Source: a virus | Taxonomy: Duplodnaviria; Heunggongvirae; Uroviricota; Caudoviricetes | Length of the DNA: 43,975 bases | IMG/VR virus record: IMGVR_UViG_3300036766_001364 | Span: 128,001 to 171,975 of that record | Direction: 5' to 3' (one strand) | Part shown: one piece after another, positions 11,047 through 43,975 of the stretch | Numbering within the stretch: position 1 is the stretch's first letter | Layout of the letters: each line of letters opens with the position of its first letter | Notes under the pieces: generated by a model | Databases searched by the model: none | The model's input: the letters and a program-made list of their open reading frames with translations, nothing else | Told to the model about the DNA's origin: nothing | Program-made: the position numbers and the translations under genes

Positions 11047-11054
11047 GAGTCCAG

Positions 11055-11719: not shown

Positions 11720-11720
11720 C

Positions 11721-13570: not shown

Positions 13571-13585
13571 GTCAGAAGGTTGAAG

Positions 13586-16621: not shown

Positions 16622-16660
16622 GTTTTAGTCCATGCCGCGGCTCGGGTAGTATATAGACAC

Positions 16661-17342: not shown

Positions 17343-17345
17343 CGC

Positions 17346-18196: not shown

Positions 18197-18202
18197 GCGG
18201 CC

Positions 18203-28503: not shown

Positions 28504-28800
28504 ATGACCAAGCTTACGCCTCGCCAGAGGCAGATCGCTCGCGCTATGATCGAGGGCCTCTCTACCGCGGAGATCGCGGTCGCGCGCGGCGTGGCCGTGG
28601 GGACCGTGGAGTGGCACGTGAAACAGACGCTCCGCGCGATCGGGCTGGAAGAGGCCGCGTCTCGCCAACACGGCTACAGGGCGAACCTCATGGCGCTGTG
28701 CGCGTACGCGATCACCCACGACGCGGAGCTGATCCCGGCCGAGAGCGCGCTGGGGATCGCGCTCAGGCATTATCGGATCCGCTCAAAGACGAGCGTTTAG
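28504..28800 (+). CDS. LuxR-type HTH protein, paralog of 27127-27615
   Basis: LTPRQRQIA.....GLS..EIA...G....TV.WH; shared tail AYAI..D..LI..E..LG.ALR. Confidence 0.8.
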   Translation: MTKLTPRQRQIARAMIEGLSTAEIAVARGVAVGTVEWHVKQTLRAIGLEEAASRQHGYRANLMALCAYAITHDAELIPAESALGIALRHYRIRSKTSV

Positions 28801-30151: not shown

Positions 30152-31116
30152 CCGACGCGGCGTCTCTGCTGGACGGGGCGATGGCGTTGAGCGACGCCCT
30201 GAAGCGCCGCGCTCAGGAGAGAGACGCCGCGCGTCGAGACGTGGAACTAGCGCTGGCGCTCTCTTGCTCGCTGCTCCGCAAGGCCTGGAGGTCGTACGAT
30301 CCCGGCCGGTTCCAGACGCCGAGGGGCGCCAGGACGCGCGTCGGCCCGCGCGGGGGCCGGTACTACTGGGCCGGCCGCGACGAGAGCGTGCGCTCGTTCG
30401 AGGCGGAGTTCCAGCGCGTGGCCGGCACGACATGGAAGGAGGCGACGTCGAAATTGCCGCCGGAGTCCCTGGAACGGGTCAGAGAGGCCGCCAGGACAGT
30501 GATGCGGTACGCGCACATCAACGAGCTCAGCGACGGGGCCGTCGCGGCCTTTGCCAGGAGGCTGTCGACCGCCTTCGACGAGATGGACGCCGGCTCGGGG
30601 TACGCGGCCACCAGGCGCAGCCGGGACGCCAACGAAGCGCTGACCGACGCCACGGAGGCGCTGTCGCAGTCGCTGCGCGGTTCGCGCGCGGACCGGGTGG
30701 TGGCGATCGACCGGGCGATGCACGCGATGCACGACAACGGGTCCCTGGCGGCGATGGTGCTCGGCGTCGGCGGCCGCTTCAACCGCGAGGGCGACGTGGT
30801 GTCGCTGCTCCTGTCGAGGCTGGCCGGCGAGGACCCGGGCGAGCGCGATTCCAGGCAGCGCGAGGCCAAGCGGCGGGGCATGGCGCGCGAGAGCGACTAT
30901 TCGCGGCGGCCCAGCGCGCGCGGCGCCGCGAGAGACCGCGCGCGTTACCGCGAGGTGCTCGCTCACGAGATGATGCCGACCGCCGAGCGCGCCGCCCACA
31001 TGCGCGCGCTGTCGCCCTACCGGCAGCGACAGGAGTCGGACTGGTACGACAGGCGACCGATGACGCTCGAAGAGGCGGAAGAGCGCGTGCGGCGGTACGA
31101 CGCCGAGCGCCGATGA
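30148..31116 (+). CDS. Hypothetical protein with LRKA and GPRGGRYY motifs
   Basis: GTGA-coupled start; helical, Arg-rich C-terminus. Confidence 0.65.
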   Translation: MTDAASLLDGAMALSDALKRRAQERDAARRDVELALALSCSLLRKAWRSYDPGRFQTPRGARTRVGPRGGRYYWAGRDESVRSFEAEFQRVAGTTWKEATSKLPPESLERVREAARTVMRYAHINELSDGAVAAFARRLSTAFDEMDAGSGYAATRRSRDANEALTDATEALSQSLRGSRADRVVAIDRAMHAMHDNGSLAAMVLGVGGRFNREGDVVSLLLSRLAGEDPGERDSRQREAKRRGMARESDYSRRPSARGAARDRARYREVLAHEMMPTAERAAHMRALSPYRQRQESDWYDRRPMTLEEAEERVRRYDAERR

Positions 31117-31356
31117 GAAAGCGATCGAACGCCGGGCGCGGACGTCGACGCGTTCCTGGACACTGCCGCGGCATGACGCCCGGGCCGCTCTTCAGGCGCG
31201 CGCTCGCGCGTAAAGCTTTAAGGCGCTGCCGATCGCCGCGTGCGGGAGACCGCCGCGATCCAAATATCCAACGGGGGCGGAAGACGCCAGCGAACCAGAG
31301 CACCGCGCAGACAGACTCGAAGCGCCACCCGAAGCCACGCTGGCCAACGGCGCCAG

Positions 31357-31553
31357 GAGCACGCGATGAGCGCACGGAGAGCACGCGGAGAGCGCACGAA
31401 TAGCCACGCGAAGAGCGCGTCAAGACCCCGACAAGAGCACGCAAAGCACGCCAGGAGCACGTGAAGAGCGCATGAATAGCACGCCAGGAGCACGCCAGGA
31501 GCGCGTGGAGAGCGCATGGAGAGCGCATGGAGAGCACGTGAATAGCACGTGAA
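31357..31553. repeat. Degenerate 11-bp tandem repeat, ~18 units, consensus (G/T)AGC(A/G)C(G/A)NNNN
   Basis: e.g. gagcacgtgaa gagcgcatgaa tagcacgccag gagcacgccag gagcgcgtgga gagcgcatgga gagcgcatgga gagcacgtgaa tagcacgtgaa. Confidence 0.9.
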
Positions 31554-32089
31554 GTTGCGCAAAGCGCCCCAGTACCTCGCTCGGTGAGCCCCAAGATCTC
31601 CGCTCCCCCGCGCTCTCTGGCATTCGCGCCTGGATCCTCTCGTGCCTTGGGATCCCGGGGACCGGTATTCGCGTGGGTCGCGTGGTCCTCGGCGCTCGAA
31701 CGCGTGGGGGTGGTCGCAGACTCGGGCGGGCTCTCGCCCTCGGACCCGGTGGTCCTGGCGGGGTCCGCCGGTCACGGGCGACGCCCGACGATATAGGATC
31801 CTGCATAGATCGCGGCCGCCGAGTTGAAAATTCCCGGGGTCTTCTCAGAAAGGACGCCGTTTCCATACCGTCTGCGGGATAAAAGCGGTCGGGAGCGCCC
31901 TCTGCGCGCGCTCTGTGGCCCGTCGGACCGCTCGAGAGCCGGCTTTCGCGGCCCGATCGCGATCGCGCGGCCCAGAAGCGCCCGCCCGAGGCCCAAGAGC
32001 GCCCGCCTGGCGCCTCGGCGGACCGCGCTTGGGAGCGCCCCGCGAATCTGGAACAGTTGTCAAGACAGGGGTAGCGGCTCGGGTCGGCG

Positions 32090-32108
32090 GCTCTTCCGCG
32101 GTAAGATG
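32090..32108 (+). promoter_or_regulatory. Isolated copy of the cassette promoter motif (no CAA leader)
   Basis: gctcttccgcggtaagat. Confidence 0.55.
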
Positions 32109-32136
32109 AAGTCACGGGCGATCGACGGAGAGGCGC

Positions 32137-32308
32137 GTGCAGAGGCCAAGGTCTAAAGAAGCGGCTCGTGCTCCGCGGCTTCAGGCCGACCGAGGCCGAC
32201 TGGGCGAGGCTCGGTGAGACGGCGGCGGTCGACAGGAGGTCGAGGTCGTGGGAGCTCGAGGCGGCGGTCCGCCGCTGCCTGGACACGCGAGAGGCCTGTA
32301 CACGGTGA
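32137..32308 (+). pseudogene. Ribbon-helix-helix-like gene, apparently frameshifted near its start
   Basis: KRLVLRGFRPTEADWARLGETAAVDRRSRSWELEAAVRRCL; the RBS-preceded GTG 32137 is in another frame. Confidence 0.4.
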
Positions 32309-32437
32309 CCTGCTACCGCGAGGACGTGGACCTGTTCGAGTCCTCTGGCGCGTTCGCCGCCGCAGCGATCCTGTCTGCCTTCGATCGACTCGCGAAATAA
32401 GCAGACGCCGAGCGTTCGCCTGAGGTATGATGAGGGC

Positions 32438-32623
32438 GTGCCGATCATAGCGACGACCTGCAAGGGCTCCAACGACGACCCGAGCGGGACGGTGTCTTCC
32501 GAAGACGCCGCGAACGCGGTCGGGCTCATCCTCGGAGCGTGCCCCCAGTGCCGTACGCTGCAGCGCGTGTATAAGGACAGAGAGGGGCGGCTCTCGATCA
32601 TGCCGCACGTCGTGCCGCAATGA
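32438..32623 (+). CDS. Small Cys/His metal-binding protein
   Basis: CKGS...CPQC...H; GTG just after GGTATGAT -10 (leaderless-like). Confidence 0.6.
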   Translation: MPIIATTCKGSNDDPSGTVSSEDAANAVGLILGACPQCRTLQRVYKDREGRLSIMPHVVPQ

Positions 32624-32739
32624 GGGCCCGGCTGACCGTCGCCCTGGCGCTCGTCGTCGCTGCGCTGGCGTCGCTCGCGCTGCTCGGGTACCTCACCGAG
32701 AAGGCCTTCGGCTACGGGGTCCGGCCGTGGGAACGGTGA
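32620..32739 (+). CDS. Small single-TM protein
   Basis: MRARLTVALALVVAALASLALLGYL; ATGA/GTGA coupling. Confidence 0.5.
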   Translation: MRARLTVALALVVAALASLALLGYLTEKAFGYGVRPWER

Positions 32740-32927
32740 GGCCGGCGCTGACCGGGGTTCGCTGGTGGCTGGCGAAGAAGATCAGCCCGTACGGCGCGAT
32801 CGCGGTCGGACTGACGATCAGGGACGGGACGCTGACGCTCCCCGTCGGCGCGAAGAAAGCCGTCGTCGAGGACTGCGCGTTCGTGAACACGGGCGTCCAT
32901 CCGCGTGGGAGCGGCGAAAAAGCGTGA
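32736..32927 (+). CDS. Hypothetical protein
   Basis: GTGA-coupled. Confidence 0.45.
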   Translation: MRPALTGVRWWLAKKISPYGAIAVGLTIRDGTLTLPVGAKKAVVEDCAFVNTGVHPRGSGEKA

Positions 32928-33150
32928 AAGACGCGAAGCGACCCGTCGCCCGCGAGAAGATCGAGCGCGGCGCGTCGGGCCAAGCGGCGAGCCGAAAGCC
33001 AGAGAAAGCCCCAAAGAGAAAGAAGAAGACGAGCCGTGGGAAATGAACGCGTGACCCCCCATCGAAGAGCGAGCGCCGTCTCGAGTCGAGGGGCCGGGAG
33101 GTTGGACGCGCCCGTCGCGCGGCGCGGCGCCCGCGGTATGATGTATCGCC

Positions 33151-33357
33151 GTGGCGAATGACAAGAAGGCCCGCGGACGCGGCAGGCGCACGGTGCTCCC
33201 CGGGGCCGTCGTGCTCGAGCGGTACGCGAACGGGCAGCCGTCGCTCTACCGGTTCAGGGGCGACCGGCTGACCAGGCGGCAGTACCACGTCTTGGTGAGG
33301 TCGCTGCAGGAGTCTGGGGACCTGCCCCCGCGCCGAGCCTGGGCCAAGAAGGCCTGA
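33151..33357 (+). CDS. Small basic hypothetical protein
   Basis: Start just after CGCGGTATGAT. Confidence 0.55.
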   Translation: MANDKKARGRGRRTVLPGAVVLERYANGQPSLYRFRGDRLTRRQYHVLVRSLQESGDLPPRRAWAKKA

Positions 33358-33399
33358 GAGAGGGTTTCAGGGAGCGGCGCCGCGCGCTACGATGTGCCC

Positions 33400-33873
33400 A
33401 TGCCGTACGCCGCGCCAGAGTCGATCACCAACGCCGATGGCTCCCTGAGCCCCATCGGCCTCGAACGCCGCTTCGCGACCCTCGAACAGGTCACGGCCGT
33501 CACGTCCGAGGCCACCGTCGCCAACCAGCGCACGATGTCGCAGCTGCTCGACGGGCAGCGCGAGTTCAAGGCAGAACAGAACGAACAGACGCGCGTGATC
33601 GCGCACATCGACAAGCAGGTCTCGGACACGAACGGCTCGGTCCGCGAGCTGAAGGGGTGGAGGGTCACCGTGGACGCGTGGATGGTCGCCGTGGACGCGT
33701 GGAAGAGCGCCGATTCGTCGATGCAGGACTACGCCAGCGGCGTCTTCGCCGGGCGCGAGCAGATCTCGAAGCGCGACAAGGCGGTCATCGGGACCGTGTT
33801 CACGGGCCTGATGGTCGGCGTGAGCGTCCTCACCACGCTGCTCCCGCACGTCGCGCGCGCGATATGGGGGTAG
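33400..33873 (+). CDS. Coiled-coil protein with C-terminal TM (XhlA-like architecture)
   Basis: TNGSVRELKGWR motif, terminal TM; ATG 6-7 nt after TACGAT. Confidence 0.65.
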   Translation: MPYAAPESITNADGSLSPIGLERRFATLEQVTAVTSEATVANQRTMSQLLDGQREFKAEQNEQTRVIAHIDKQVSDTNGSVRELKGWRVTVDAWMVAVDAWKSADSSMQDYASGVFAGREQISKRDKAVIGTVFTGLMVGVSVLTTLLPHVARAIWG

Positions 33874-33887
33874 ACCGCGAGGTCTCC

Positions 33888-34076
33888 CTAGAAGCGGAAC
33901 TCGCGCTTCTCTGACCGCAGCTCTCTCTGCAGAGCGTCGAAGGCGCGCTCGAACACCGCGTCTCTCGGGAGCTTCTCGAACAGCGGCCGCGAGGCGACGT
34001 GCGCCGCGGCGGCCCAAGCGAGCGCCTCGGCCTGCCTCCTGGTCAGCCGCACGACTACGTAGCCGTCGGCCGCCAT
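33888..34076 (-). CDS. Hypothetical protein
   Basis: Last gene of the leftward operon. Confidence 0.5.
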   Translation of the reverse strand: MAADGYVVVRLTRRQAEALAWAAAAHVASRPLFEKLPRDAVFERAFDALQRELRSEKREFRF

Positions 34077-34336
34077 CGGTCCACCCCCGCTTCGCACTCT
34101 TCGCACCAGCCTTCGGCGATCATGGAGCGCACGTAGCGCTCGGTGCCCTGCAGGAGCGCCGCGTGTCGCTCGCAGATCGCGGCGAAGCGGCCCCCGTCGC
34201 GGGGGTCGATCCCCTGGTCTTCCGCCCTGACGACGACGCGGATCCCGACTCCGTCTATGTGGGCGTGGACCCTGTAGCCGGCGTAGCGGCGGACGATCCC
34301 GCAGGCGGGATCGCTCGAAACACGGCAGGCCTTCAT
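34055..34336 (-). CDS. Hypothetical Cys-containing protein
   Basis: ATGA-coupled; C...C, C..H and WCEEC. Confidence 0.55.
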   Translation of the reverse strand: MKACRVSSDPACGIVRRYAGYRVHAHIDGVGIRVVVRAEDQGIDPRDGGRFAAICERHAALLQGTERYVRSMIAEGWCEECEAGVDRWRPTAT

Positions 34337-34497
34337 CGCGGCAGCCTTTCAGCCAGGAATTCGGACTGCTCGCGCAGCCGTTTAGCGTCGCGTGAGTGCG
34401 TGCCGTATCGCTCCCAGATGAGCCTCTCGAACTCTTCGAGGAGCGGGAGGATCTCGGTCGCCCTGGCCTTTATCTCGGCTCGGGTGGGTCCGTTCAT
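34333..34497 (-). CDS. Hypothetical helical protein (54 aa)
   Basis: MNGPTRAEIKARATEIL...; ATGA coupling. Confidence 0.55.
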   Translation of the reverse strand: MNGPTRAEIKARATEILPLLEEFERLIWERYGTHSRDAKRLREQSEFLAERLPR

Positions 34498-34622
34498 CGC
34501 GTCACGACCAATATAGGGATATCGCTTGCGACGAGCGCTTTGGCGAGGCTGGCGAGCAGCGCCACTGCCTCCATTCCGAACCTGCGCGGCTTGCGGCCCT
34601 TGCGGATGGGGATCGGGCTCAT
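34494..34622 (-). CDS. Hypothetical protein (42 aa)
   Basis: MSPIPIRKGRKPRRFGMEAV...; GGAGG RBS supplied by the minus-strand element. Confidence 0.55.
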   Translation of the reverse strand: MSPIPIRKGRKPRRFGMEAVALLASLAKALVASDIPILVVTR

Positions 34623-34670
34623 CGCGACCTCCGTGCTGTGCTGTTGTGTATAAGGATATCACGAGAGAGC
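34623..34670 (-). repeat. Cassette element 1 (minus strand)
   Basis: gctctctcgtgatatccttatacacaacagcacagcacggagg. Confidence 0.85.
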
Positions 34671-34684
34671 CGTGCGCGTCGGCC

Positions 34685-34738
34685 GCTCCGCCGTGATACG
34701 ATAGACGCAGCAACATAAAAGGGTTGGTGTCTTCATCC
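34685..34738 (+). repeat. Cassette element 2
   Basis: gctccgccgtgatacgatagacgcagcaacataaaaggg. Confidence 0.75.
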
Positions 34739-34945
34739 ATGGTCACAGACAGAGTCAAGCTCGCGACGTTCGCGCCCGACGACTACCGCGGGCGATACAA
34801 CTACATGATCGGCTACGTCGGTCAGACGGCCGTGAACGCCGACGCGCCCACGCGCCGATCGCTCGCGCGCGTCCTGGACGCGATGGGCGAAGCCGCCGAG
34901 GTCTCTCGACTGGCGGCGCTCTTTCCGTCCGAGGCTCTCCCGTGA
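34739..34945 (+). CDS. Hypothetical cassette protein
   Basis: Stop TGA lies inside element 3. Confidence 0.6.
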   Translation: MVTDRVKLATFAPDDYRGRYNYMIGYVGQTAVNADAPTRRSLARVLDAMGEAAEVSRLAALFPSEALP

Positions 34946-34991
34946 TACGATGGCCACAACAACAACAACAACAGAACACGGAGAACCCAAG
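34934..34991 (+). repeat. Cassette element 3
   Basis: gctctcccgtgatacgatggccacaacaacaacaacaacagaacacggag. Confidence 0.9.
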
Positions 34992-35156
34992 ATGCCGAAA
35001 GTCTACCACATGACCAAGCAGCGGGCGCTCGAGGGCGCGATCGAATGGCTCCAGGCCGTCCTCGACGAAGGCCACCTCGACGGCGAACAGATGAAGCGAG
35101 ACATCCTGTCTGACCTCGCCGCCTATCGGGCGGCCCGAGACCGGGGGTCGCGGTGA
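34992..35156 (+). CDS. Hypothetical cassette protein (54 aa)
   Basis: ATG after GGAG of element 3. Confidence 0.65.
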   Translation: MPKVYHMTKQRALEGAIEWLQAVLDEGHLDGEQMKRDILSDLAAYRAARDRGSR

Positions 35157-35671
35157 TGGGAGTCGACTGCAACGCCTACCTGTACCAGTCTGCCGACGCC
35201 AGGGACGTCGCCGCGGTCCTCGCCGCCCTGGCGGGGAACACGATCAAGGAAGACGCCCACGGGAACGCCGGGGGCGAAGCCGTCATCGTGCGGCGAGCGC
35301 ACATCGACGACATGCTGAGGATCGAGTTCCCGTCCCCCGCAGATCCGAAGTGTCCGACGCACGCGTGCGCGTTCTTCTTCAACGCGGACGGGCCGCGCCA
35401 CGCGTTCAGGCTCGTCATGATGCGGTCGACGGCGTTCTGGATCGCCGCGGCGCGCGGGCTCGTGGACGTCTTCGGCGGGTTCGCCGACTACTCAGACAGC
35501 GACACGTCCGAGGTCGACTACGCGCGCTTCGAGGCCAAGGTCATGGCCGCCACAGACGGCGACGCGTGGCGCGAGCGCCAGGATCGCATCTTGAGCGTGA
35601 AAGCGATCGCTCCGGCCGACCTCATGCTCTGCGAGCAGTGGGCCGCGTACAAGTCAGGAGATCTCGAATGA
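35153..35671 (+). CDS. Hypothetical protein
   Basis: MGVDC start, GLVD.FGG..DY.D motif; coupled on both sides. Confidence 0.7.
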   Translation: MMGVDCNAYLYQSADARDVAAVLAALAGNTIKEDAHGNAGGEAVIVRRAHIDDMLRIEFPSPADPKCPTHACAFFFNADGPRHAFRLVMMRSTAFWIAAARGLVDVFGGFADYSDSDTSEVDYARFEAKVMAATDGDAWRERQDRILSVKAIAPADLMLCEQWAAYKSGDLE

Positions 35672-36063
35672 CGAGGGAAGACGTGGACGACATCAGCGTG
35701 CTCGAGGACTTCATCACGCCGCCGAGCGTCGGCGGACGGTTCGGCGCGCGCGTCGACAGGAGCCTCATGTTCCGCGCCAAGGGGGGGATCTTCCAGGTGC
35801 GCATCAGGGACGACGGGCCGATCCAGTCTTCGTACGCGCTCCTCGTGCGGTGGAGCCGCGAGCGAGAAGACTGGGTCACGCTGTCGATCCGCAAGCCGTC
35901 GGAGTGGGGCCTCTGCGCGGTCGGCGGCGCCAACGGGTCGGGCAGCGCGAAGCACGACCGCGAGTTCTACAAGCCCGCCGAGGACGACCTCATCGCGCTC
36001 GCGCTCGACTTCGAGGACTCGCTCCAGGACATCGGCCGCGCCAAGCCGGCTCTCGCGCGATAA
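35668..36063 (+). CDS. Hypothetical protein
   Basis: AGGAG RBS; stop TAA lies inside element 4. Confidence 0.7.
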   Translation: MTREDVDDISVLEDFITPPSVGGRFGARVDRSLMFRAKGGIFQVRIRDDGPIQSSYALLVRWSREREDWVTLSIRKPSEWGLCAVGGANGSGSAKHDREFYKPAEDDLIALALDFEDSLQDIGRAKPALAR

Positions 36064-36096
36064 TATGGTCACAACAACAAAATAGGGAGACCAGAC
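36049..36096 (+). repeat. Cassette element 4
   Basis: gctctcgcgcgataatatggtcacaacaacaaaatagggag. Confidence 0.9.
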
Positions 36097-36327
36097 ATGC
36101 AGTTCACCGTCAGGGCCATCGCGATCGACCCGAGCACGGGTGCGATGTACCCGCCGCGCGACGAGACGATCGACACCGAGGCGAACGCGCTCTTCAGCGG
36201 CTGCTTCAGCGAGTGGGACGTCGAAGACGCGTACGAAGCGTTCTGGAACAGGCTCGACGGGTCGTGGGAAGCCGAGTTCCCGCGCGGCAAGGAGAAAGTC
36301 AAGGTCGTCAGCGTGGCGAGGCTGTGA
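36097..36327 (+). CDS. Hypothetical cassette protein
   Basis: ATG after element 4. Confidence 0.7.
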   Translation: MQFTVRAIAIDPSTGAMYPPRDETIDTEANALFSGCFSEWDVEDAYEAFWNRLDGSWEAEFPRGKEKVKVVSVARL

Positions 36328-36479
36328 CAGAGTGTCCCGTCTGCTGCCAGCGCTTCAACGACGCGCCCACGGGTCAGGACTACCGCTACCGCAGTTGGAA
36401 GCACAGCAAGTCAAAGCGTCACAAGCGGGCGCTCTCGCGCGATACAGTGGTCTCAACAACGAAACAGAGAGGTCCCATC
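36324..36479 (+). CDS. Zn-finger ORF lacking its own stop; reads through element 5 in frame into the next gene
   Basis: VTECPVCC...KHSKSKRHKR-ALSRDTVVSTTKQRGPI-MPH. Confidence 0.5.
36431..36479 (+). repeat. Cassette element 5
   Basis: gctctcgcgcgatacagtggtctcaacaacgaaacagagagg. Confidence 0.85.
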
Positions 36480-36812
36480 ATGCCACACGCCGAAGGCCGC
36501 CATTCCATCATCGACATCGAATCAGACAGCGCGTATGAGCGCGTGCTCGCCAGCGAAGCGTTCCCGGGCGGGTTCGAGGACAAGGACCCGAAGGACGTCC
36601 TCGACGCGCTGCTCGACCTGGCCTACGATTATTGCCCAGGCGCCGATTCTGTCACCTTCGACTTCCACGGCGAACTCGTAGCCGAGGGCATGGCAGTTCG
36701 GCCCGGCTACCGATTCAGCGCCGTCTTTGGGGACGGCTGCCGCGTGTCGGCCTGCAACATCCCCAAGCGCGCCATCGCGCCGCGCGACCTGGCCGCCATG
36801 GACTTGGGATAG
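36480..36812 (+). CDS. Hypothetical cassette protein
   Basis: ATG after GAGG of element 5. Confidence 0.65.
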   Translation: MPHAEGRHSIIDIESDSAYERVLASEAFPGGFEDKDPKDVLDALLDLAYDYCPGADSVTFDFHGELVAEGMAVRPGYRFSAVFGDGCRVSACNIPKRAIAPRDLAAMDLG

Positions 36813-36824
36813 GCGCTCTAACCG

Positions 36825-36874
36825 ACTCTCCCGTGATACAATGATCCCAACAACAACAGCAGGGAGCAACCCAC
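36825..36874 (+). repeat. Cassette element 6
   Basis: actctcccgtgatacaatgatcccaacaacaacagcagggag. Confidence 0.9.
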
Positions 36875-37207
36875 ATGACAACGCTTGCAGTCCGCAACGA
36901 AGCGCAGAAGATCCTCCTCGAGCGGGAGATGCTTGGCCAGATCAGCGACGGCCAGTGGGAGAACGCCCGACCGCTCGACCACTGGGAACCGTGGTGCAAC
37001 GCGACGATCATCGTCGATCCCGCGAACGTCGGCCGCGATTTCTACGCGCGCAAGGACAACTACAACCTCACCAGCAAGTACCTGCTCGACATCGTCGGAG
37101 ACCGCATGCTGGAAGCCGTCCAAGCGTCCGTGTCTGGCTACGACCGCAAGCGCATGGTCGCCGACCTGCGCGACCTCAAGGCCATCTTGAAGGCGTGGAG
37201 GGCCTGA
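36875..37207 (+). CDS. Conserved-looking phage protein (GQISDG.WEN.RP..HW..W)
   Basis: ATG after element 6; distinctive Trp motif. Confidence 0.75.
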   Translation: MTTLAVRNEAQKILLEREMLGQISDGQWENARPLDHWEPWCNATIIVDPANVGRDFYARKDNYNLTSKYLLDIVGDRMLEAVQASVSGYDRKRMVADLRDLKAILKAWRA

Positions 37208-37210
37208 CGC

Positions 37211-37477
37211 GTGGCGATCGCGTTCACGGTCCCGCCGTTCAGCGGGCCGCGCTACGGTGAGAACGCGTCCCGCTGTCGGGGCGATCAGTGGCCCTGCGCG
37301 ATCTGCGGGAGGGCGACTGAGAACGCCTCGGCGTGGGCGACCGTCGTTGACGGAGGCGCGGCCTGGGGGGACGAGTCCTCAGACGAGGAAGCGGACGGCT
37401 TCATGGGACAGTACCCGATCGGCGCAGACTGCGCCCGGCGGTACCGCATCAGGGGGATTGAGCGCGCTCTTCCGTGA
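37211..37477 (+). CDS. Zn-binding hypothetical protein
   Basis: CAICGR...PIGADCARR; stop inside element 7. Confidence 0.7.
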   Translation: MAIAFTVPPFSGPRYGENASRCRGDQWPCAICGRATENASAWATVVDGGAAWGDESSDEEADGFMGQYPIGADCARRYRIRGIERALP

Positions 37478-37509
37478 TAAGATAGATCCAACAGCAGGAG
37501 CAAAAAGCG
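37466..37509 (+). repeat. Cassette element 7
   Basis: gctcttccgtgataagatagatccaacagcaggag. Confidence 0.9.
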
Positions 37510-37845
37510 ATGCAGTACGCGATCCGGATCCGCAATAGCCACACGCACAACGTCGACATAGAGGGACCCCACCTCGACCTGCCCGACTTCGCCGTGCTCG
37601 GCTGGTACGCAGGCGACGACGAGCCGCCCTCGGCCCACATGCGGGTCGGCGTGCTGGTGTTCGACGACTTGGCAGAGGCCGAGGCCGACCGCGACGCCGT
37701 GATGGCGACGTGGTTCGCCTGCACGGCCGAGGTCCGTGTCCGTCAGCGAGGACAGATCAAGGGGGTAATCGCGATGGACCACGGACGCGCTCATCGAGAA
37801 GATCAACGAGAGCGTCCGCGGGGATCCGGTCCGGCTCTCTCGTGA
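37510..37845 (+). CDS. Hypothetical cassette protein
   Basis: Stop inside element 8; last ~24 codons look out of frame. Confidence 0.55.
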   Translation: MQYAIRIRNSHTHNVDIEGPHLDLPDFAVLGWYAGDDEPPSAHMRVGVLVFDDLAEAEADRDAVMATWFACTAEVRVRQRGQIKGVIAMDHGRAHREDQRERPRGSGPALS

Positions 37846-37882
37846 CAAAATAGTCCCAACATCAAAAGCAGGAGTGAATCCC
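37833..37882 (+). repeat. Cassette element 8 (-10 degenerate, CAAAAT)
   Basis: gctctctcgtgacaaaatagtcccaacatcaaaagcaggag. Confidence 0.85.
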
Positions 37883-38347
37883 ATGGCGACGGAGTTCGTA
37901 AGGATCGCGGCCGATCGCGTCATCGTGGCGCCGTTCTCGATCGATCAAGCAGTCTGGCACGTCGCGCGCGCCAGGCAGAAGATCGAGACTCCGTGCCCGT
38001 TCTGCGCCGGCGGGGGATACGCTGTCGGCAAAGACGGCTCGAACGCGAGCTGCCCCAAGTGCATGACGAGGGCGGTCATCGTCGCTTACCTCGACGAAGC
38101 GTGGGCGGTCGACGATCGCGCGATGACCGTCGGGCAGATCAGGCTCGCCTACACCGGCGGACACCGAGCTTCCAGCGAGCGGTCGATCAACTACGGCTCA
38201 CAGAAAGAGAGCGTCGAGTGGCGCTTCATGTGCTACGAGACGGGCATCGGATCGGGGTCGCTGTGGGATCCCAAGGACCTGTTCGCTTCGCGTGAGACGG
38301 CGCAGGCGGCGTGCGACACGAGGAATGCCGCGCCGTCTCTCTCGTGA
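37883..38347 (+). CDS. Zn-finger (CxxCxGxG) hypothetical protein
   Basis: CPFCAGGG...CPKC; ETGIGSGS.W...LF motif; stop inside element 9. Confidence 0.75.
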   Translation: MATEFVRIAADRVIVAPFSIDQAVWHVARARQKIETPCPFCAGGGYAVGKDGSNASCPKCMTRAVIVAYLDEAWAVDDRAMTVGQIRLAYTGGHRASSERSINYGSQKESVEWRFMCYETGIGSGSLWDPKDLFASRETAQAACDTRNAAPSLS

Positions 38348-38383
38348 TAAGATAGATCCAACAACGCAGCACGGAGGCCAGCG
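38336..38383 (+). repeat. Cassette element 9
   Basis: tctctctcgtgataagatagatccaacaacgcagcacggagg. Confidence 0.9.
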
Positions 38384-38851
38384 ATGGCACTGACGATCGA
38401 AAAGAACGCCGACGGCAAGTGGGCGCTCACAGACACCGAAGCAAACACGGTCGAGCTGTTCCGCAGCCGGACCGGGGCCGACGCCAAGCGCACCGTCCTC
38501 TTCAATCGGCGCGACGCCGCGGACCTCAAGGCGCGTCAGGACTGGGCGGCCGCGATGCCTCAGGCGAGCAAGGATAGCGTCGACCACGCGATCAAAGACG
38601 CCGAGCGGCGTCTCGTTGACGCTGAAGACCGCGTCAAACGCGGGGCCGTGCGCATCAAGGAGAGGATGGAAAGCGTGCTCGCTGGGATGGAGCGCGGCCG
38701 GTATCCGAACTGTCTCGGAGAGCTGCAGTTTTCGGGCGTTGAGTTCGACCGCCTCTGCGGCGAGTTGGATCGCGCGAAGCACGAGCTGGTCGCCGTCCAG
38801 GACGTGTTCAAGCATGCGTTCGGCCGGGAGGACGAACCCGCCCTTAAGTAG
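38384..38851 (+). CDS. Hypothetical coiled-coil protein
   Basis: ATG after GGAGG. Confidence 0.7.
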   Translation: MALTIEKNADGKWALTDTEANTVELFRSRTGADAKRTVLFNRRDAADLKARQDWAAAMPQASKDSVDHAIKDAERRLVDAEDRVKRGAVRIKERMESVLAGMERGRYPNCLGELQFSGVEFDRLCGELDRAKHELVAVQDVFKHAFGREDEPALK

Positions 38852-38861
38852 GGGGCCCACG

Positions 38862-38910
38862 GCTCTCTTGTGATACGATAGGCACAACAACGAAACAGAG
38901 AGGTACCCCC
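38862..38910 (+). repeat. Cassette element 10
   Basis: gctctcttgtgatacgataggcacaacaacgaaacagagagg (leader nearly identical to element 5). Confidence 0.9.
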
Positions 38911-39342
38911 ATGATATCGATCGTCCGCACGCGCGAGCCGAAGGTCATCCAGCTCTACATCTCGCGCATGGACAGCTTCGGCGATCAGAACGACACGGTC
39001 CTGGACGCGGACACGCGCGAGCAGTTCGCCGACCACGCGATCCTCACGTGGCAGTTCGAGCACAACCGGTACCCGGGCGACGGCGCTGGGTCGATCGTGC
39101 GCGGGACGCTCGTGCTGGTGCAGGACCGCGGCTGCGTCTCCCACGGCGCGCCAGCCGGTTCGCGCTTCATAATCAAGGTCCTGGAGGGCGAGTTCGAGCG
39201 CGTTGGCCAGGCGGACATGCTGTTCGACGGCGACGTGACCGTGGAGTTCGACCAGGCGCGCCTGACCGCTCTCGTCAACGAGGTGAAGGCGGGCAAGCGC
39301 AGTCACGAGCCGCATCGCAGCTCGCAGCTCGCTGAGGCCTGA
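38911..39342 (+). CDS. Hypothetical cassette protein
   Basis: ATG after element 10. Confidence 0.7.
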   Translation: MISIVRTREPKVIQLYISRMDSFGDQNDTVLDADTREQFADHAILTWQFEHNRYPGDGAGSIVRGTLVLVQDRGCVSHGAPAGSRFIIKVLEGEFERVGQADMLFDGDVTVEFDQARLTALVNEVKAGKRSHEPHRSSQLAEA

Positions 39343-39353
39343 TCCCGAGGTCG

Positions 39354-39404
39354 GCTCTCTCGTGATAGAATAGCTTCAACCACAGAACACAGAAGGGGGC
39401 GATC
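39354..39404 (+). repeat. Cassette element 11
   Basis: gctctctcgtgatagaatagcttcaaccacagaacacagaagggg. Confidence 0.9.
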
Positions 39405-39626
39405 ATGCCAGCAGACGACATCGCCGAGATACGGACCGCCATCTTGAGCGAGGTGGCTTCGAACTTGGAGACTCTCGATTTCCTGGACGGCGGCGACGTC
39501 GGGTTCGCGGTCGGCGCGGTGTACGCCGCGGCGATCGAGGCCAACGCCATAACCGCCTGCTTCAGGCTCGAAGACGGGCGCGTGGTGACGGCGCGGTTCG
39601 CGCTCGTCAATCTCGAGGTCAAGTAG
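39405..39626 (+). CDS. Hypothetical acidic protein
   Basis: ATG after element 11. Confidence 0.6.
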   Translation: MPADDIAEIRTAILSEVASNLETLDFLDGGDVGFAVGAVYAAAIEANAITACFRLEDGRVVTARFALVNLEVK

Positions 39627-39660
39627 GAATGCCAGATCAAAAAAGAGCCAAACCGGCCAC

Positions 39661-39810
39661 ATGATCGCCATCACCGACGATCTCTACTGGAAGCTGCAAG
39701 AGGCGCCAGCTACGACCCGGACGACCGCCAACGTCGAATACCAGCGCGTGACGGCTCCCGCCTGGCTCGCAGCGTTCCTCACCTCGCAGGCACAGGAGGC
39801 GCAGGGATGA
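39661..39810 (+). CDS. 49-aa ORF whose 3' half duplicates the 3' end of the next gene
   Basis: Ends ...ANVEYQRVTAPAWLAAFLTSQAQEAQG*. Confidence 0.45.
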   Translation: MIAITDDLYWKLQEAPATTRTTANVEYQRVTAPAWLAAFLTSQAQEAQG

Positions 39811-40265
39811 GCGCAACCACTCCACGGATCACGCTCGCGATGCTGAAAGGCGCTTGTAGCGAGCAGCGCCACACCTTTCTCACTGAATGGCCGCAGGGCG
39901 CTGTGGCAACCCTCGAAAACGTCCAGCGCGCACAGGCTATTGGCCTTAATCTCGATTGGGGTACGTGCTGGTTCACGGCAACCGCCTACGCCGAATACGA
40001 GAGCGTGAGGATTGCCGCCCAAGCCGAATACCGGCTCGTGACGATTGCCGCACTCGCCGAATACCAGCGCGTGAGGATTGCCGCCAACGTCGAATACCAG
40101 CGCGTGAGGATTGCTGCCTGGCTCAAATACGAGAGCGTGACGGCTGCCGCCCAAGCCGAATACGAGAGCGTGAGGATTGCCGCCCAAGCCGAATACGAGA
40201 GCGTGACGGCTGCTGCCTGGCTCGCAGCGTTCCTCACCTCGCAGGCACAGGCGGTGCAGGGATGA
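39807..40265 (+). CDS. Protein with 11-aa (33-bp) helical repeats AEYESVRIAAQ
   Basis: GAC..Q...F...WP.G N-terminal domain followed by ~7 tandem 33-bp repeats. Confidence 0.8.
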   Translation: MSATTPRITLAMLKGACSEQRHTFLTEWPQGAVATLENVQRAQAIGLNLDWGTCWFTATAYAEYESVRIAAQAEYRLVTIAALAEYQRVRIAANVEYQRVRIAAWLKYESVTAAAQAEYESVRIAAQAEYESVTAAAWLAAFLTSQAQAVQG

Positions 40266-40470
40266 GCGATCAGCTAACCCGCGTAAGGTGCATAGAGCAG
40301 GCGGCGGACGACTACCGCCGATGAGGGCGGTTGCGACATCTGCGAGGCGGCAACGCATCAGAGCAGCGAATGCCCCCCCAGGAACCGCTGCCCATGTTCA
40401 TCGAGACGATGGCGGACGACGGCCTAGCTTCGTGAGCGAGTTCATCGACCGCTCTTCCGTGGTAGAATAG
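40262..40470 (+). pseudogene. Frameshifted zinc-knuckle gene remnant
   Basis: MSDQLTRVRC.., CDICEAATHQSSECP and QEPLPMFIETM lie in discontinuous frames; C7 run at ~40373-40379. Confidence 0.4.
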
Positions 40471-40499
40471 TCTCAGCAACAAAAGCACGGAGACCGACG
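40451..40499 (+). repeat. Cassette element 12
   Basis: gctcttccgtggtagaatagtctcagcaacaaaagcacggag. Confidence 0.9.
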
Positions 40500-40715
40500 A
40501 TGACCACCGACCTGCCCACCTGCATCCGCACCGGCTTGCCCATCAGGCCCGAGCTCTGGCCACCGCAGCCCGAGTATCGGGGCGCGCACAGGCCGTTCGT
40601 CGGCCCGATGGTCAGCGCTCGCCTGGCGTGGCTGCTGGACTCAGACCAGTTCACGGCCACTTACGGCTGGGGCTTTGAGTGGAAAGACCAATCGCTGGTG
40701 GTGAAGGCATCGTGA
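40500..40715 (+). CDS. Hypothetical cassette protein
   Basis: ATG after element 12. Confidence 0.6.
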   Translation: MTTDLPTCIRTGLPIRPELWPPQPEYRGAHRPFVGPMVSARLAWLLDSDQFTATYGWGFEWKDQSLVVKAS

Positions 40716-40733
40716 GCCAGGCGGGGGACTAGC

Positions 40734-40791
40734 GCTCTCACGTGATAAAATAGATCCAACAACAACAGAAAGCAGGGGGGGAGTCCTCGCC
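40734..40791 (+). repeat. Cassette element 13
   Basis: gctctcacgtgataaaatagatccaacaacaacagaaagcagggggggag. Confidence 0.9.
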
Positions 40792-41010
40792 ATGGCCACC
40801 GACCAGACCAGACAAGAAGCGCGCGACGATCAGCGCACGATCGAGCGCCTTGACGCCGCCGACGCGTACATCGCGAAGAACCTGCCCGGCGCTCAGCCGC
40901 TCTTCAAGTGCGTGGAGTGCGGCCGTCGCTTCCGCACGGTGAGCGCCGCAGAACGCGCAGTGGATGAGGGCTGCCCCAGATGCGGTGGCTCTGACGTCGA
41001 TCTGGCCTGA
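40792..41010 (+). CDS. Zn-ribbon protein (FmdB-like pattern)
   Basis: FKCVECGRRF...CPRCGGSDV. Confidence 0.75.
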   Translation: MATDQTRQEARDDQRTIERLDAADAYIAKNLPGAQPLFKCVECGRRFRTVSAAERAVDEGCPRCGGSDVDLA

Positions 41011-41052
41011 CTCTCTCGTGGTAAAATAACCACAGCAACAAAACACGGAGAC
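41010..41052 (+). repeat. Cassette element 14
   Basis: actctctcgtggtaaaataaccacagcaacaaaacacggag. Confidence 0.9.
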
Positions 41053-41265
41053 ATGACCATGGACTACCAGATCAAGCACAGGACGCTGCCGCGCGGCCTC
41101 TACCGCGCCAAAGCGACCCTCTATACGGCCATCGTCACCGACGAGCGCGGCGAGGTGGACCGCAAGGAGTTCGTCGTGGCGTGTGGATCAGGGAGTCCGC
41201 GGGCGCTCCTGCAGTGGCTCGATTCGTTCGGCTTCAGCGTCATCAAGACGCAGGTCGCCGCGTGA
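41053..41265 (+). CDS. Hypothetical cassette protein
   Basis: ATG after element 14. Confidence 0.65.
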   Translation: MTMDYQIKHRTLPRGLYRAKATLYTAIVTDERGEVDRKEFVVACGSGSPRALLQWLDSFGFSVIKTQVAA

Positions 41266-41480
41266 GCGCCCGCGTAGGGATCGTCTGTGACCAGTGCACC
41301 AACGTCGGCAAGATGGCCATCGGCCCGACTGTCTACGGCACCATCGACGACCTCCGCAGGTCATTGCGCTTGGGCGGCTGGAAGACCTACCGCGCCCCGG
41401 TCAGCCGGGTGCTGGACGTCTGCCCCAACTGCCTGGTGGAGCCACTCATCCCAGACGACTGGCGCGAGGTCGCTCCGTGA
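41262..41480 (+). CDS. Zn-binding protein
   Basis: CDQC...GW...D.CPNC; GTGA coupling. Confidence 0.7.
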   Translation: MSARVGIVCDQCTNVGKMAIGPTVYGTIDDLRRSLRLGGWKTYRAPVSRVLDVCPNCLVEPLIPDDWREVAP

Positions 41481-41660
41481 CTCAGGCCACATGCGGCGCG
41501 ACCCCTGATGCTGAAGACCGGCGAGACGCTGGCCTGCATCAAGATCGCCGGGCACGAGGCGCTGGACGAGACCAAGCTGTCGCAGTGCCACGCTGGCTTC
41601 CTCGATGGCGCGCGCAGACAGAAGATGCGCTTCTGGCGGGACGGCAAGGAGGTCCTGTAA
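41477..41660 (+). pseudogene. Cys/His protein with an apparent 1-nt frameshift in a C4 run
   Basis: VTQATCGAT then LMLKTGETLACIKIAGH...H in the next frame. Confidence 0.5.
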
Positions 41661-41664
41661 GGCC

Positions 41665-41713
41665 GCTCTCCCGTGATAAGATGGTCCCAACAACACAGCA
41701 CGGAGACACAGAG
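41665..41713 (+). repeat. Cassette element 15
   Basis: gctctcccgtgataagatggtcccaacaacacagcacggag. Confidence 0.9.
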
Positions 41714-41938
41714 ATGCAGACAGTACGACAGGCCGCCGAAGCGCGAGGGATCACCGAGTACGACACCGCGCTCCCGCAGCCGTGGGTCGACCTGGTGGTC
41801 GAGCGCTTCGGCAAGGATAACTACCCGTGCGGACACGTGGTGTGGTCATACGCGGGCGGCACGAACACGGGCTATCCGATGGCCGTGGACGCCTTCGGCG
41901 ACCGGCTGCTCGGGCGCATCGCGGCCAACCTGCGATGA
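41714..41938 (+). CDS. Hypothetical cassette protein
   Basis: MQTVRQAAEARGITEYDTALPQ.W...VWSY. Confidence 0.7.
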   Translation: MQTVRQAAEARGITEYDTALPQPWVDLVVERFGKDNYPCGHVVWSYAGGTNTGYPMAVDAFGDRLLGRIAANLR

Positions 41939-42087
41939 CGCTCATCGACCCGAAGGACTACCACATGGCCGACCAGGCCTGCAGCCAGTGCGGCAAGAAG
42001 ACCAAGGGCCTGTGGATGCCGCGCCGGCTGTGCAACGGATGTGACCGGAAGCGGCAGAATGCGCCGCGCTCTTCCGTGATAAAATAG
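41935..42087 (+). CDS. Small Zn-binding protein
   Basis: CSQCG...LCNGC; stop TAG inside element 16. Confidence 0.65.
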   Translation: MTLIDPKDYHMADQACSQCGKKTKGLWMPRRLCNGCDRKRQNAPRSSVIK

Positions 42088-42116
42088 ATCCAGCAACGCA
42101 ACATGGGAATACTCAA
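42068..42116 (+). repeat. Cassette element 16
   Basis: gctcttccgtgataaaatagatccagcaacgcaacatggga. Confidence 0.9.
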
Positions 42117-42338
42117 ATGTTCGTAGTCTTCCATCGCGAGTCGCCCGAAGATTTCACCACGCACCGTGGCAAGCGCTCGGTCCTCGACGAGATCCAGCCC
42201 ACTGGGTCGATGGCCGACGAATACTTCGTCATCGAGATCCGCGCCGGGAAAACGATCGGAGTCAGCTTCTCAGACGCATGAGTCCAGGACAATGGGTTCG
42301 ACGACGAATGGCTGGAAAAGAACGGGTACGCGGGGTAA
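42117..42338 (+). CDS. Hypothetical cassette protein with an internal in-frame TGA (42279-42281)
   Basis: MFVVFHRE...SFSDA*VQDNGFDDEWLEKNGYAG-TAA. Confidence 0.5.
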
Positions 42339-42350
42339 GGCCGGTTCACT

Positions 42351-42440
42351 CCGCTCTCGTGGTATGATATGGATCGCGCGGGGGGGCGTCCGACCACCAG
42401 TTTCCCGCCCCGCTTCCTAGTGGTCTAGGCGCCCACGCGT
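42351..42440 (+). ncRNA. Element 17 promoter followed by a stem-loop (candidate sRNA or structured leader)
   Basis: ccgctctcgtggtatgat, then gggcgtcc-gaccac...gtggtc-ta-ggcgccc pairing in place of the CAA leader. Confidence 0.4.
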
Positions 42441-42450
42441 GGAGTACCTG

Positions 42451-42639
42451 ATGAGCACGAAGGACAGACGGTTCGCCACGGTCGAGTGCGAATGCTGCCA
42501 CCGCGAGTTCGAGTCGGCCGTCACGGTCGACGGCTCGCCCCACGTGGCACACAAGGCGACGCGCGCAAGATGCTTCCGATGCCGCATGTCGTGCACGAAC
42601 CAGGTCGGCGACTGTCGCCTCTCTCCCGCGGTAGAATAG
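42451..42639 (+). CDS. Small Cys-rich Zn-binding protein
   Basis: CECC...CFRC; stop TAG inside element 18. Confidence 0.6.
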   Translation: MSTKDRRFATVECECCHREFESAVTVDGSPHVAHKATRARCFRCRMSCTNQVGDCRLSPAVE

Positions 42640-42673
42640 TCCCAACAGCAAAAGGGAGGACTCAAAAAAAAAG
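42620..42673 (+). repeat. Cassette element 18
   Basis: tctctcccgcggtagaatagtcccaacagcaaaagggagg. Confidence 0.9.
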
Positions 42674-42784
42674 ATGGACCAGAAGTGCTACGCGTGTCCG
42701 AACCGCGCGATCGCTTACATCGTGTTCGCCGGCAAACCGGCCAAACTGGCCTGCTACGACCACCTCGACGGGAAGGACTCCTGA
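42674..42784 (+). CDS. 36-aa Zn-binding microprotein
   Basis: MDQKCYACPNRA...LACYDH. Confidence 0.6.
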   Translation: MDQKCYACPNRAIAYIVFAGKPAKLACYDHLDGKDS

Positions 42785-42785
42785 G

Positions 42786-43031
42786 GTGGAACAGCTGTCC
42801 GTCGGAGCGGCGCTCCTGATCGCCGGGTTCGCCTGTCTCGGGTGGACGGCGTACGCACAGGCGCGCCGGCCAGCGCCCAGACCAGCGCCACCAGAACGGG
42901 TCCCAGTCGCGCCTAAGGCGCCCCGCGCCAAGCGACGGCCGCGCCCGATCGTAGACCTGGGCAGCGGCAGCACCGCGGCCGAGCGTGAGTCGCTCATGCG
43001 GGCCATCGAGGCTGCCGACCGCCGTGGTTGA
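42786..43031 (+). CDS. Single-TM protein with Pro/Arg-rich tail
   Basis: N-terminal TM segment. Confidence 0.55.
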   Translation: MEQLSVGAALLIAGFACLGWTAYAQARRPAPRPAPPERVPVAPKAPRAKRRPRPIVDLGSGSTAAERESLMRAIEAADRRG

Positions 43032-43368
43032 CAGCGTGGGCGTGTTCCTCTCTGGGCGGCCGAGGCAGCCCAGCGGGAAGGACCTGCTGCGCGCCGTCGC
43101 CGCCCGCGACTACAGCCTCGTCTTCGTGGACGACGCCGACGAGACGGTGTGGAACGGCGGGCCCATCGAGCCAGACTTCGTGACTGACGACCGCGTCCAA
43201 TGGCGCTTCTCGGTGGACATCAAGCGCGACTGCTACGTGGCCGGACTGGTCATCGAGTTCGGATCGTTCGACGAGCCGTATCGGCATCCGGTCAAGGACT
43301 CGGTGGCCGGGCGCATGAATGCCGGCGACACCCTGAACGTCGGCTTCGAGCTCACGTTCAGGCCGTAG
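43024..43368 (+). CDS. Hypothetical beta-rich protein
   Basis: Overlaps upstream stop; protein-like composition. Confidence 0.6.
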   Translation: MVDSVGVFLSGRPRQPSGKDLLRAVAARDYSLVFVDDADETVWNGGPIEPDFVTDDRVQWRFSVDIKRDCYVAGLVIEFGSFDEPYRHPVKDSVAGRMNAGDTLNVGFELTFRP

Positions 43369-43381
43369 AGGCCTCTCGCTC

Positions 43382-43429
43382 TCTCTCTCGTGATAAAATG
43401 ACGCCAGCAACAGCGCGAGGAGCAGCCAG
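43382..43429 (+). repeat. Cassette element 19
   Basis: tctctctcgtgataaaatgacgccagcaacagcgcgaggag. Confidence 0.9.
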
Positions 43430-43588
43430 ATGGCGGCGAAGAAGAGGGTCACATTCAGGAACATGGAGGCCGGCCGGGCGAACTGGGCGGTCTTCCTGGA
43501 CGGCGCGGCTGTCATCGTCGGCCTCGAAGAGAGCGACGTCAAGGACTACGCGCGGGACGTCAGCGAGTTCGTGGGCATCGAGAAGTAA
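43430..43588 (+). CDS. Hypothetical cassette protein (52 aa)
   Basis: MAAKKRVTFRNMEAG...; AGGAG RBS. Confidence 0.65.
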   Translation: MAAKKRVTFRNMEAGRANWAVFLDGAAVIVGLEESDVKDYARDVSEFVGIEK

Positions 43589-43611
43589 CCGTCCTGTAAC
43601 CGCTCTCGCTC

Positions 43612-43663
43612 GCTCTCACGCGCTACAATCAACACAACACAACAGGGAAAGGAACCCATCCCA
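43612..43663 (+). repeat. Cassette element 20
   Basis: gctctcacgcgctacaatcaacacaacacaacagggaaagga. Confidence 0.85.
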
Positions 43664-43975
43664 ATGAAGAAGCTTTACCTCCGCGACTACGAAGTCGCAC
43701 CCGAGGGCGCCGTCGTCGTGACGGGCCGGCTCGGCGGGCGGTACTTCGAGTACACCGACCGCGGTGATCGCCATCGCGACGCCGAGTTCACCGAATGGTT
43801 CTTGGCTCGCCCCAAGCTCCACACCGTCCACCTCAAGGCCCAGGCCGAAGCGCCCGCCGTCGAGGACCTCCACGTCGCCGGCGACGTGCCCGAAGAGCCC
43901 AAAGCGCAGATCGATGAAGTCGCCGCGCGCCGCGAGCACAAGAACCGGCTCGAACGCGATCGCCGCGCTCGCAAG
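43664..43975 (+). CDS. Hypothetical protein, 3' truncated by window end
   Basis: MKKLYLRDYEVAPEGAVVVTGRLGGRYFEY...; frame open to the end. Confidence 0.7.
   Translation, partial: MKKLYLRDYEVAPEGAVVVTGRLGGRYFEYTDRGDRHRDAEFTEWFLARPKLHTVHLKAQAEAPAVEDLHVAGDVPEEPKAQIDEVAARREHKNRLERDRRARK

Follow-up and report, generated by a model that had tools for sequence, protein, structure and literature searches.

Integrons carry arrays of small, unrelated open reading frames (ORFs) separated by a repeat in which stop codons often lie, and their cassettes are promoterless, with one promoter, Pc. In mycobacteriophages, the repeated SAS/ESAS motif lies just upstream of small non-essential genes and overlaps the ribosome site, in some cases with an inverted repeat upstream. 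Promoter-early stem-loop (PeSL) cassettes of T4-type phages place repeated sigma70-type early promoters before ORFans; close relatives differ by indels that end in chimeric elements, excised mini-circles are a further trait, there is no integrase, homologous crossover is proposed, and the authors liken PeSLs to integrons (PMC2839356, PMC4122927). The SPO1 host-takeover module, whose products shut down host processes, is a cluster of small genes, unrelated to one another, that lies in a 12.4-kb terminal region and is served by strong host promoters and strong ribosome sites (PMC6873191). In SIRV2 and other archaeal viruses a conserved early regulatory sequence precedes terminal anti-defence genes and has been used to predict such genes (PMC11065993). 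Here we describe an array of small genes headed by a repeated promoter-like element, hereafter the element, in the phage record IMGVR_UViG_3300036766_001364 (171,975 nt, 65% G+C; G000, with its own coordinates given as C1). The window that we analyzed is the last 44 kb of that record (43,975 nt, positions 128,001 to 171,975). We consider it probable that a large tailed phage has its early genes in this array, likely within a long terminal repeat, with some 25 predicted host-sigma promoters that each precede one or a few small accessory genes, and with units lost or gained, likely by homologous crossover.

As in PeSLs, a sigma70-type promoter geometry is predicted before ORFans, and a chimeric element was found at one of three large indels. 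Unlike PeSLs, the array lacks a stem-loop or terminator, a -35 box and an AT-rich upstream part; it is one dense array, likely in a terminal repeat, rather than the scattered hyperplastic regions of T4-type phages; and the phage is not T4-type, having a family A polymerase (DNA_pol_A) and weak hidden Markov model matches to a T7-like terminase and a Podo-type capsid. The array acts like a PeSL but, lacking the stem-loop, the -35 box and the T4-type background, is not a PeSL. With the SPO1 module it shares a cluster of small unrelated genes behind predicted host promoters and ribosome-binding sites (RBSs) and a phage sigma-like gene as a candidate for later stages, and, judging from depth, it may likewise lie in a terminal repeat of ~15 kb; it differs in having about 25 promoters and no link to SPO1 gp37-60 (32 ORFs against PHROGs, none named). 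In the SIRV2 case, too, many small genes near the termini, unrelated to each other, stand behind copies of a highly similar promoter; that promoter is an archaeal TATA/BRE promoter, the accessible portion of PMC11065993 gives no account of crossover at the element, and among the genes here none is recognized as anti-defence. Small unrelated ORFs separated by a repeat, with stops often in the repeat, recall integrons, but there is neither IntI nor attC, and each unit is predicted to have a promoter of its own. The array also shares with SAS/ESAS a repeated motif just upstream of small genes; its conserved core, however, is a -10 promoter that lies 30-45 nt upstream, with a variable RBS. A narrow literature search found no account of this terminator-less form, which is not proof of its being unpublished.

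An earlier note on this DNA had listed 20 positions for the element, and the motif is present at all 20 to within 1-2 nt: 18 strong plus-strand copies, one minus-strand copy and one weak, atypical copy (42351). A 34-nt position weight matrix (PWM), built from the 19 plus-strand copies and scored leave-one-out, gave 23.5-50 bits for 18 of them, as against a top score of 14.9 bits in 20 Markov-simulated genomes. The atypical copy scored -21.7 bits leave-one-out and 12.5 bits for the core alone, near chance at 7.6 core matches above 11 bits per simulated genome; it has the extended -10 only, lacks the CAACAAC leader, and its ORF begins 88 nt downstream. Its G/C leader (42375-42453) folds no better than shuffles (z -0.27). 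The G run in this leader (42375-42450) is 7 bases longer in the contig of run X1 than in the record. The minus-strand copy at 34670 (16.5 core bits) heads a leftward four-gene operon. Copies are spaced 230-1115 nt apart, in line with the estimate of one per ~250-1100 bp, and a terminator scan found no plus-strand site inside the array, as the note had seen. Its count of 1-4 small ORFs per unit came out as 1-3 by the gene caller, which missed a few short ones, and its description of the array ORFs as mutually unrelated held apart from one paralogous pair (39661/39807). The array does run on past the window, since contig L052 of a 99%-identical strain carries five more elements in the 4.1 kb beyond 43975; in run X1, another copy leads into the contig's first bases (loose end 41706; compared by eye). 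Together these bring the total to at least 25 copies.

The copies are 73% identical on average and share exact runs with a median of 7 and a maximum of 21 bases. The array delimited by this motif is real, but the motif is not confined to it: a PWM scan of the genome placed seven core copies with scores of more than 17 bits outside the array, where chance predicts 0.1. The 50-nt stretch before each element folds no better than shuffled sequence (mean z 0.04; z below -2 in 2 of 22, compared with 2 of 40 in the control), and Rfam gave no match in 31000-43975. Motif scans of IMG/VR for further arrays returned no stretch with the long pattern and two single matches with the short one.

Aligned on the hexamer, the plus-strand copies are conserved from about 12 nt upstream and show CTCTC (-23 to -19), CG, TG at -15/-14 (14 of 18 copies) and TAnnAT, the CTCTC box and the hexamer being near-invariant. 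Six looser bases follow the hexamer, and then C and A, 11 and 12 nt from the hexamer start, in 18 of 18 copies; in the related phage G001 the same positions hold C in 22 and A in 23 of 23. Downstream of +1 comes an A/C-rich leader of 19-34 nt and then a GGAG/AGGG ribosome site, itself variable. No -35 box was found: there is no information upstream of -25, and the best TTGACA match is 1-3 of 6. Such spacing is that of an extended -10 promoter with a pyrimidine-purine start. The element is accordingly predicted to have the geometry of a host-sigma promoter without a -35 box, with an invariant C(-1)A(+1), and the earlier reading of it as a promoter, leader and RBS fits this geometry. That it matched no recognized motif was an overstatement, as the core is an ordinary extended -10 in which only the CTCTC replacing the -35 is unusual.

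At three sites of the genome (C1:95110, 127067 and 25293) a start codon falls exactly on the predicted +1, as in leaderless mRNAs, so the core would be a promoter class in use across the genome, for which a ribosome site is dispensable. As all determinants fit within 24 bp, upstream ORFs can run into the element, and eight of 17 stop inside the one that follows. From this geometry, the host primary-sigma holoenzyme would read the extended -10 and start at the invariant A; given such reading, the array genes would be expressed at once after injection, the A/C leader would keep the ribosome site open and, without terminators, transcripts would read through and overlap. Pairing of the 6 nt before +1 with the ribosome site, as a means of silencing read-through transcripts, found no support (native versus permuted pairs, P = 0.09 in G000/L052 and 0.17 in G001).

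We asked whether the element is a junction as well as a promoter by comparison with the 99%-identical strain, represented by two metagenome contigs, L056 (window 34084-43179) and L052; the contigs of run X2 share variants with L056 and were counted with it as one strain comparison. Three large indels separate the strains in 9.1 kb. In one, L056 lacks exactly 502 bp, comprising element 7 and its 154-aa ORF; a hybrid element stands at the join, with its 5' half from element 7 and its 3' half from element 8, and the two cross over in a stretch of 11 bases common to both. The join is no assembly slip, because X2 joins 37822 to 38333 at its full depth of 45 with 255 nt on the short side. The other two lie off the element: L056 is short of 455 nt between 89-nt coding repeats, where its assembly may have collapsed, and it has 156 additional nt about 25 nt upstream of element 11. 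A whole cassette is thus missing with a hybrid element at the join, as expected from the earlier proposal that the repeat doubles as a junction; its expectation that indel breakpoints fall at the element was borne out at one of three and not at the other two. The element is so one route of change among several.

Gene D of the array belongs to a family that is widespread in phages, with function unassigned (106 viral stretches). Among the best 80 of the 106, the promoter before gene D recurs 5-20 times in seven loci, compared with none of 80 in a coding-sequence control; the seven are G001, the pair L079/L087 and four others, and the promoter arrays are clean in each case other than G001. L079 and L087 are 95.5% identical over 4.7 kb, with four indels of at least 15 nt. 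Three of these (618, 222 and 291 nt), which are all of the array indels longer than 200 nt, are whole units that leave hybrid promoters, with at least two different crossover positions; the fourth (21 nt) is off the element. The varying crossover positions point to homology rather than a fixed cut; this pair is another phage lineage and supports the mechanism here by analogy only. Gene D is frequent in promoter arrays of large phages. L087:1890-11560 and L079:4040-7400 are an AT-rich phage pair with a 22-copy promoter array, and L125:3500-12100, from a 292-kb phage, carries a 21-copy array in which the -10 flanks of several copies are covarying inverted repeats, which suggests a hairpin or palindromic operator. 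On the low-GC contig L053 (60-2230), six canonical TTGACA-17-TATAAT promoters precede small ORFs, some with inverted repeats around the -35.

Nine viral records have capsid proteins 59-80% identical to that of G000, and G001 (165 kb) is at 80%. Its core is colinear with that of G000, and it has a syntenic array of at least 23 promoters that likewise opens with a divergent pair. The G001 promoters retain the -10, the C/A start, the A/C leader and the RBS, while CCCTCCC and a -35-like CCGACG replace CTCTC-N-CGTG; CCGACG lies at a spacer of 16-18, and 13 of 23 copies match it at 5/6 or better. Only six genes are common to the two arrays (three of the 32 window ORFs and three L052 ORFs), in the order DGBCEF in G001 and BCDEFG in G000/L052. 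The pairs B/C and E/F, coupled here, are separated in G001, where B and C stand about 4 kb and several promoters apart. Against the possibility raised in the earlier note, that relatives have fixed gene order and content here, the G001 array therefore differs in both, while the core genes are colinear. Allowing 2 mismatches, the array motif is at background level in G001-G005, and a scan with the G001 motif gave multi-copy matches in G001 only. G003 has another repeated motif before small genes (about 500-760 and 97000-107300; L028, L032, L033), with GTAAC/GTTAC, a C run and CGTC-ATAAT/TATAT, which may be a phage-sigma promoter of the clade.

In run X2, contig depth is 22 as far as 31474 and rises to 45, later 40, from 31544; the change occurs in non-coding sequence composed of short repeats. 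In X1 the contig means are 129.5 and 81.5, which agrees with a single-copy depth of 76 if the stretch between ~31,500 and ~47,000 is doubled. From this doubling at ~31,500 we take the array to be probably part of a direct terminal repeat some 15 kb long.

For the exchange of units we infer general recombination, by a phage RecA-like protein (G000 has a RecA-family gene; PF00154, E 3e-41) or by the host's, or replication slippage over 7-21 identical bases. A crossover between promoter copies would remove or insert a unit and rebuild a working hybrid promoter; a dedicated recombinase would be unnecessary, and other indel routes would act alongside. Several points weigh against this account. Eleven identical bases are short for RecA, and no ERF, Rad52 or RecT annealase was found in our searches. 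Two of the three large indels are not at the element, and the strain comparison for this array is a single one, in which the 502-bp indel may be a loss in one strain or a gain in the other. B/C and E/F swap cassette partners in G001, which is impossible by crossover at the element alone. The fetched stretches of G002-G008, most of them fragments, contain no such array, including G003 with its terminal repeats. Contig depth is a weak measure of copy number, a mixture of strains could give the look of a terminal repeat, and the record, which CheckV puts at 98% complete, is classed as linear without end repeats. Promoter activity and timing, too, are read from sequence.

These same off-element indels and changed cassette partners favor an ordinary multi-promoter early region, where the repeats only serve many genes and the single exact deletion would be a chance loss in one direction that contributes nothing to gene gain or reordering. 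The genome-wide use of the core agrees with it, as does the finding that the three clean L079/L087 indels are all absences from one strain; the frameshifts that break two neighbouring ORFs in L056 resemble decay. Loss alone, however, cannot yield two syntenic arrays of at least 20 units with mostly different genes in altered order, and ORFs that end inside the next element are expected if units join there. We regard this explanation as unlikely. An integron-like mechanism, to use the term of the earlier note, with a dedicated site-specific or structure-specific recombinase that acts on the element, would suit a whole-unit indel precise across just 11 identical bases, ORF stops inside the element, as often in attC, and the failure to find an annealase that would account for short-homology exchange. 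That mechanism is nevertheless very improbable: tyrosine and serine recombinase families (PF00589, PF00239) had no match in five of five records (PF00589 control 14/14), with the region beyond the contig end covered in part by L052; attC core pairs (RYYYAAC...GTTRRRY), sought as a simple pattern and not by covariance model, numbered 0 on either strand; there is no hairpin; and the crossover positions in L079/L087 vary.

The note had also proposed looking for a recombinase or phage transcription factor elsewhere on the contig, which yielded no recombinase but a weakly matching sigma-like ORF adjoining primase (C1:48048-48800) and two LuxR/sigma-region-4-type helix-turn-helix (HTH) ORFs (window 27127-27615 and 28546-28800) just outside the inferred terminal repeat. 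One of these factors might read the CTCTC-N-CGTG box as a regulon site, with no host early promoter involved. The near-invariant box without a conserved -35 would fit, as would the lack of any tblastn match to the two HTH ORFs in G001, which is without the box. The spacing of -10, TG and +1, by contrast, is that of primary sigma factors; the sigma-like ORF is common to G001, whose array has another upstream motif; by eye, the motif does not precede most replication and structural operons; and L053, chosen by this pattern and thus biased, has the same CTCTC-N-CGTG spacer between TTGACA and TATAAT. We think this very unlikely. A bolder proposal is that the -35-less promoter is a 24-bp expression-and-recombination module, excised and inserted across ~11 shared bases by an as yet unrecognized phage protein, and that large phages of several host groups keep integron-like early anti-defence libraries in terminal repeats and trade units such as gene D; we hold this to be quite doubtful. 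Units exchanged by homologous crossover within an early region remain the reading that we prefer.

The host-takeover or anti-defence function that the earlier note inferred for the array genes is putative. None of the 32 window ORFs exceeded a curated Pfam cut-off or matched a named PHROG (PHROGs gave three weak matches of unknown function), and none of 40 array ORFs matched in PADLOC. The sole array gene above a curated cut-off is a DUF932/TIGR03299 gene headed by an L052 element; DUF932 as an anti-defence lead is unconfirmed, being unmentioned in the main text of 10.1101/2023.02.15.528439, with literature listings silent on function. The confident model of gene D (pLDDT 97) has no PDB match by Foldseek, and its predicted fold matches only gp666 of Bacillus phage G and, more weakly, a haloarchaeal virus protein. 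Gene B has one homologue besides itself. For the 154-aa cassette ORF, viral contigs gave no relative and the Atlas only unnamed phage clusters. Within the array, a 152-aa ORF made up of tandem repeats 33 nt (11 aa) long and bordered by 89-nt direct repeats (window 39725-40268) looks variable in copy number between and within runs.

By gene calls and Pfam/NCBIfam scans, G000 is a large tailed phage with family A polymerase, DnaB, primase, RecA, ribonucleotide reductase, tail tube, terminase and capsid genes. A host lookup returned a single 29% fragment for the capsid query in GTDB and no homologue for the M23 protein. The stretch at L005 about 10300-19000 (G000:C1 86300-95000) has few genes, tRNA-like GGTTCGA motifs and a TROVE (Ro60) gene nearby, and may hold tRNAs or Y-like RNAs, given RtcB and NADAR elsewhere. 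Intein (Hint) domains occur in a head-region gene (L006:1182-4284), which seems divided over two overlapping ORFs, in ribonucleotide reductase (L005:3422-7027) and in a C5 methylase (L003:17297-19312). Coordinates of the features in the window are collected in Table 1.

Table 1. Features of the window, in window coordinates.
Feature	Position	Strand	Remark
Non-coding short-repeat tract, inferred left end of long direct terminal repeat	31340..31560	.	Contig depth doubles, run X2
Core promoter copy without A/C leader, first inside inferred terminal repeat	32090..32115	+	23.1 bits
Leftward operon, four small ORFs (42, 54, 93, 62 aa) behind minus-strand element	33888..34622	-	
Element, divergent from array	34623..34670	-	PWM
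Element 1, weak RBS, heads 68-aa ORF	34685..34738	+	PWM
Element 2, heads 54-, 171- (gene B) and 131-aa (gene C) ORFs	34934..34991	+	PWM
Genes B and C, coupled in G000	35156..36063	+	
Element 3	36049..36096	+	PWM
Element 4	36431..36479	+	PWM
Element 5	36825..36874	+	PWM
Gene D, 110 aa, invariant GQxSDGxWEN motif	36875..37207	+	
Element 6	37466..37509	+	PWM
Element 7	37834..37882	+	5' half retained in hybrid element of 99% strain
502-bp cassette (element 7 and 154-aa CxxC zinc-finger ORF, 37883-38347)	37835..38336	+	Absent in 99% strain
Element 8	38336..38383	+	3' half retained in hybrid element; its TGA is stop of upstream ORF
Element 9	38862..38910	+	PWM
Element 10	39354..39404	+	PWM
33-nt tandem-repeat ORF region between 89-nt coding repeats	39725..40268	+	Not at element
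Site of 156 extra nt in L056, including start of small ORF	40425..40426	+	Outside element 11
Element 11	40451..40499	+	PWM
Element 12	40734..40791	+	PWM
Element 13	41010..41058	+	PWM
Element 14	41665..41713	+	PWM
Element 15	42068..42116	+	PWM
Atypical weak copy	42351..42450	+	Extended -10 only, G/C-rich leader, no CAACAAC
Element 17	42620..42673	+	PWM
Element 18	43382..43429	+	PWM
Element 19, heads ORF cut by contig end (110 aa in L052)	43612..43663	+	PWM

The layout itself is already known and recurs in other phages, and the surprise is a moderate one. The array extends promoter-mediated gene shuffling beyond T4-type phages and suggests that the PeSL hairpin is unnecessary, a bare 30-bp promoter with 11 shared bases marking the crossover. 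About 40 small, likely early genes here and ~50 in G001 offer a source list for host-takeover and anti-defence screens, as was done with the SIRV2 motif. The two related phages, with different upstream determinants on the same -10/leader scaffold, also provide a natural test of a promoter losing its -35.

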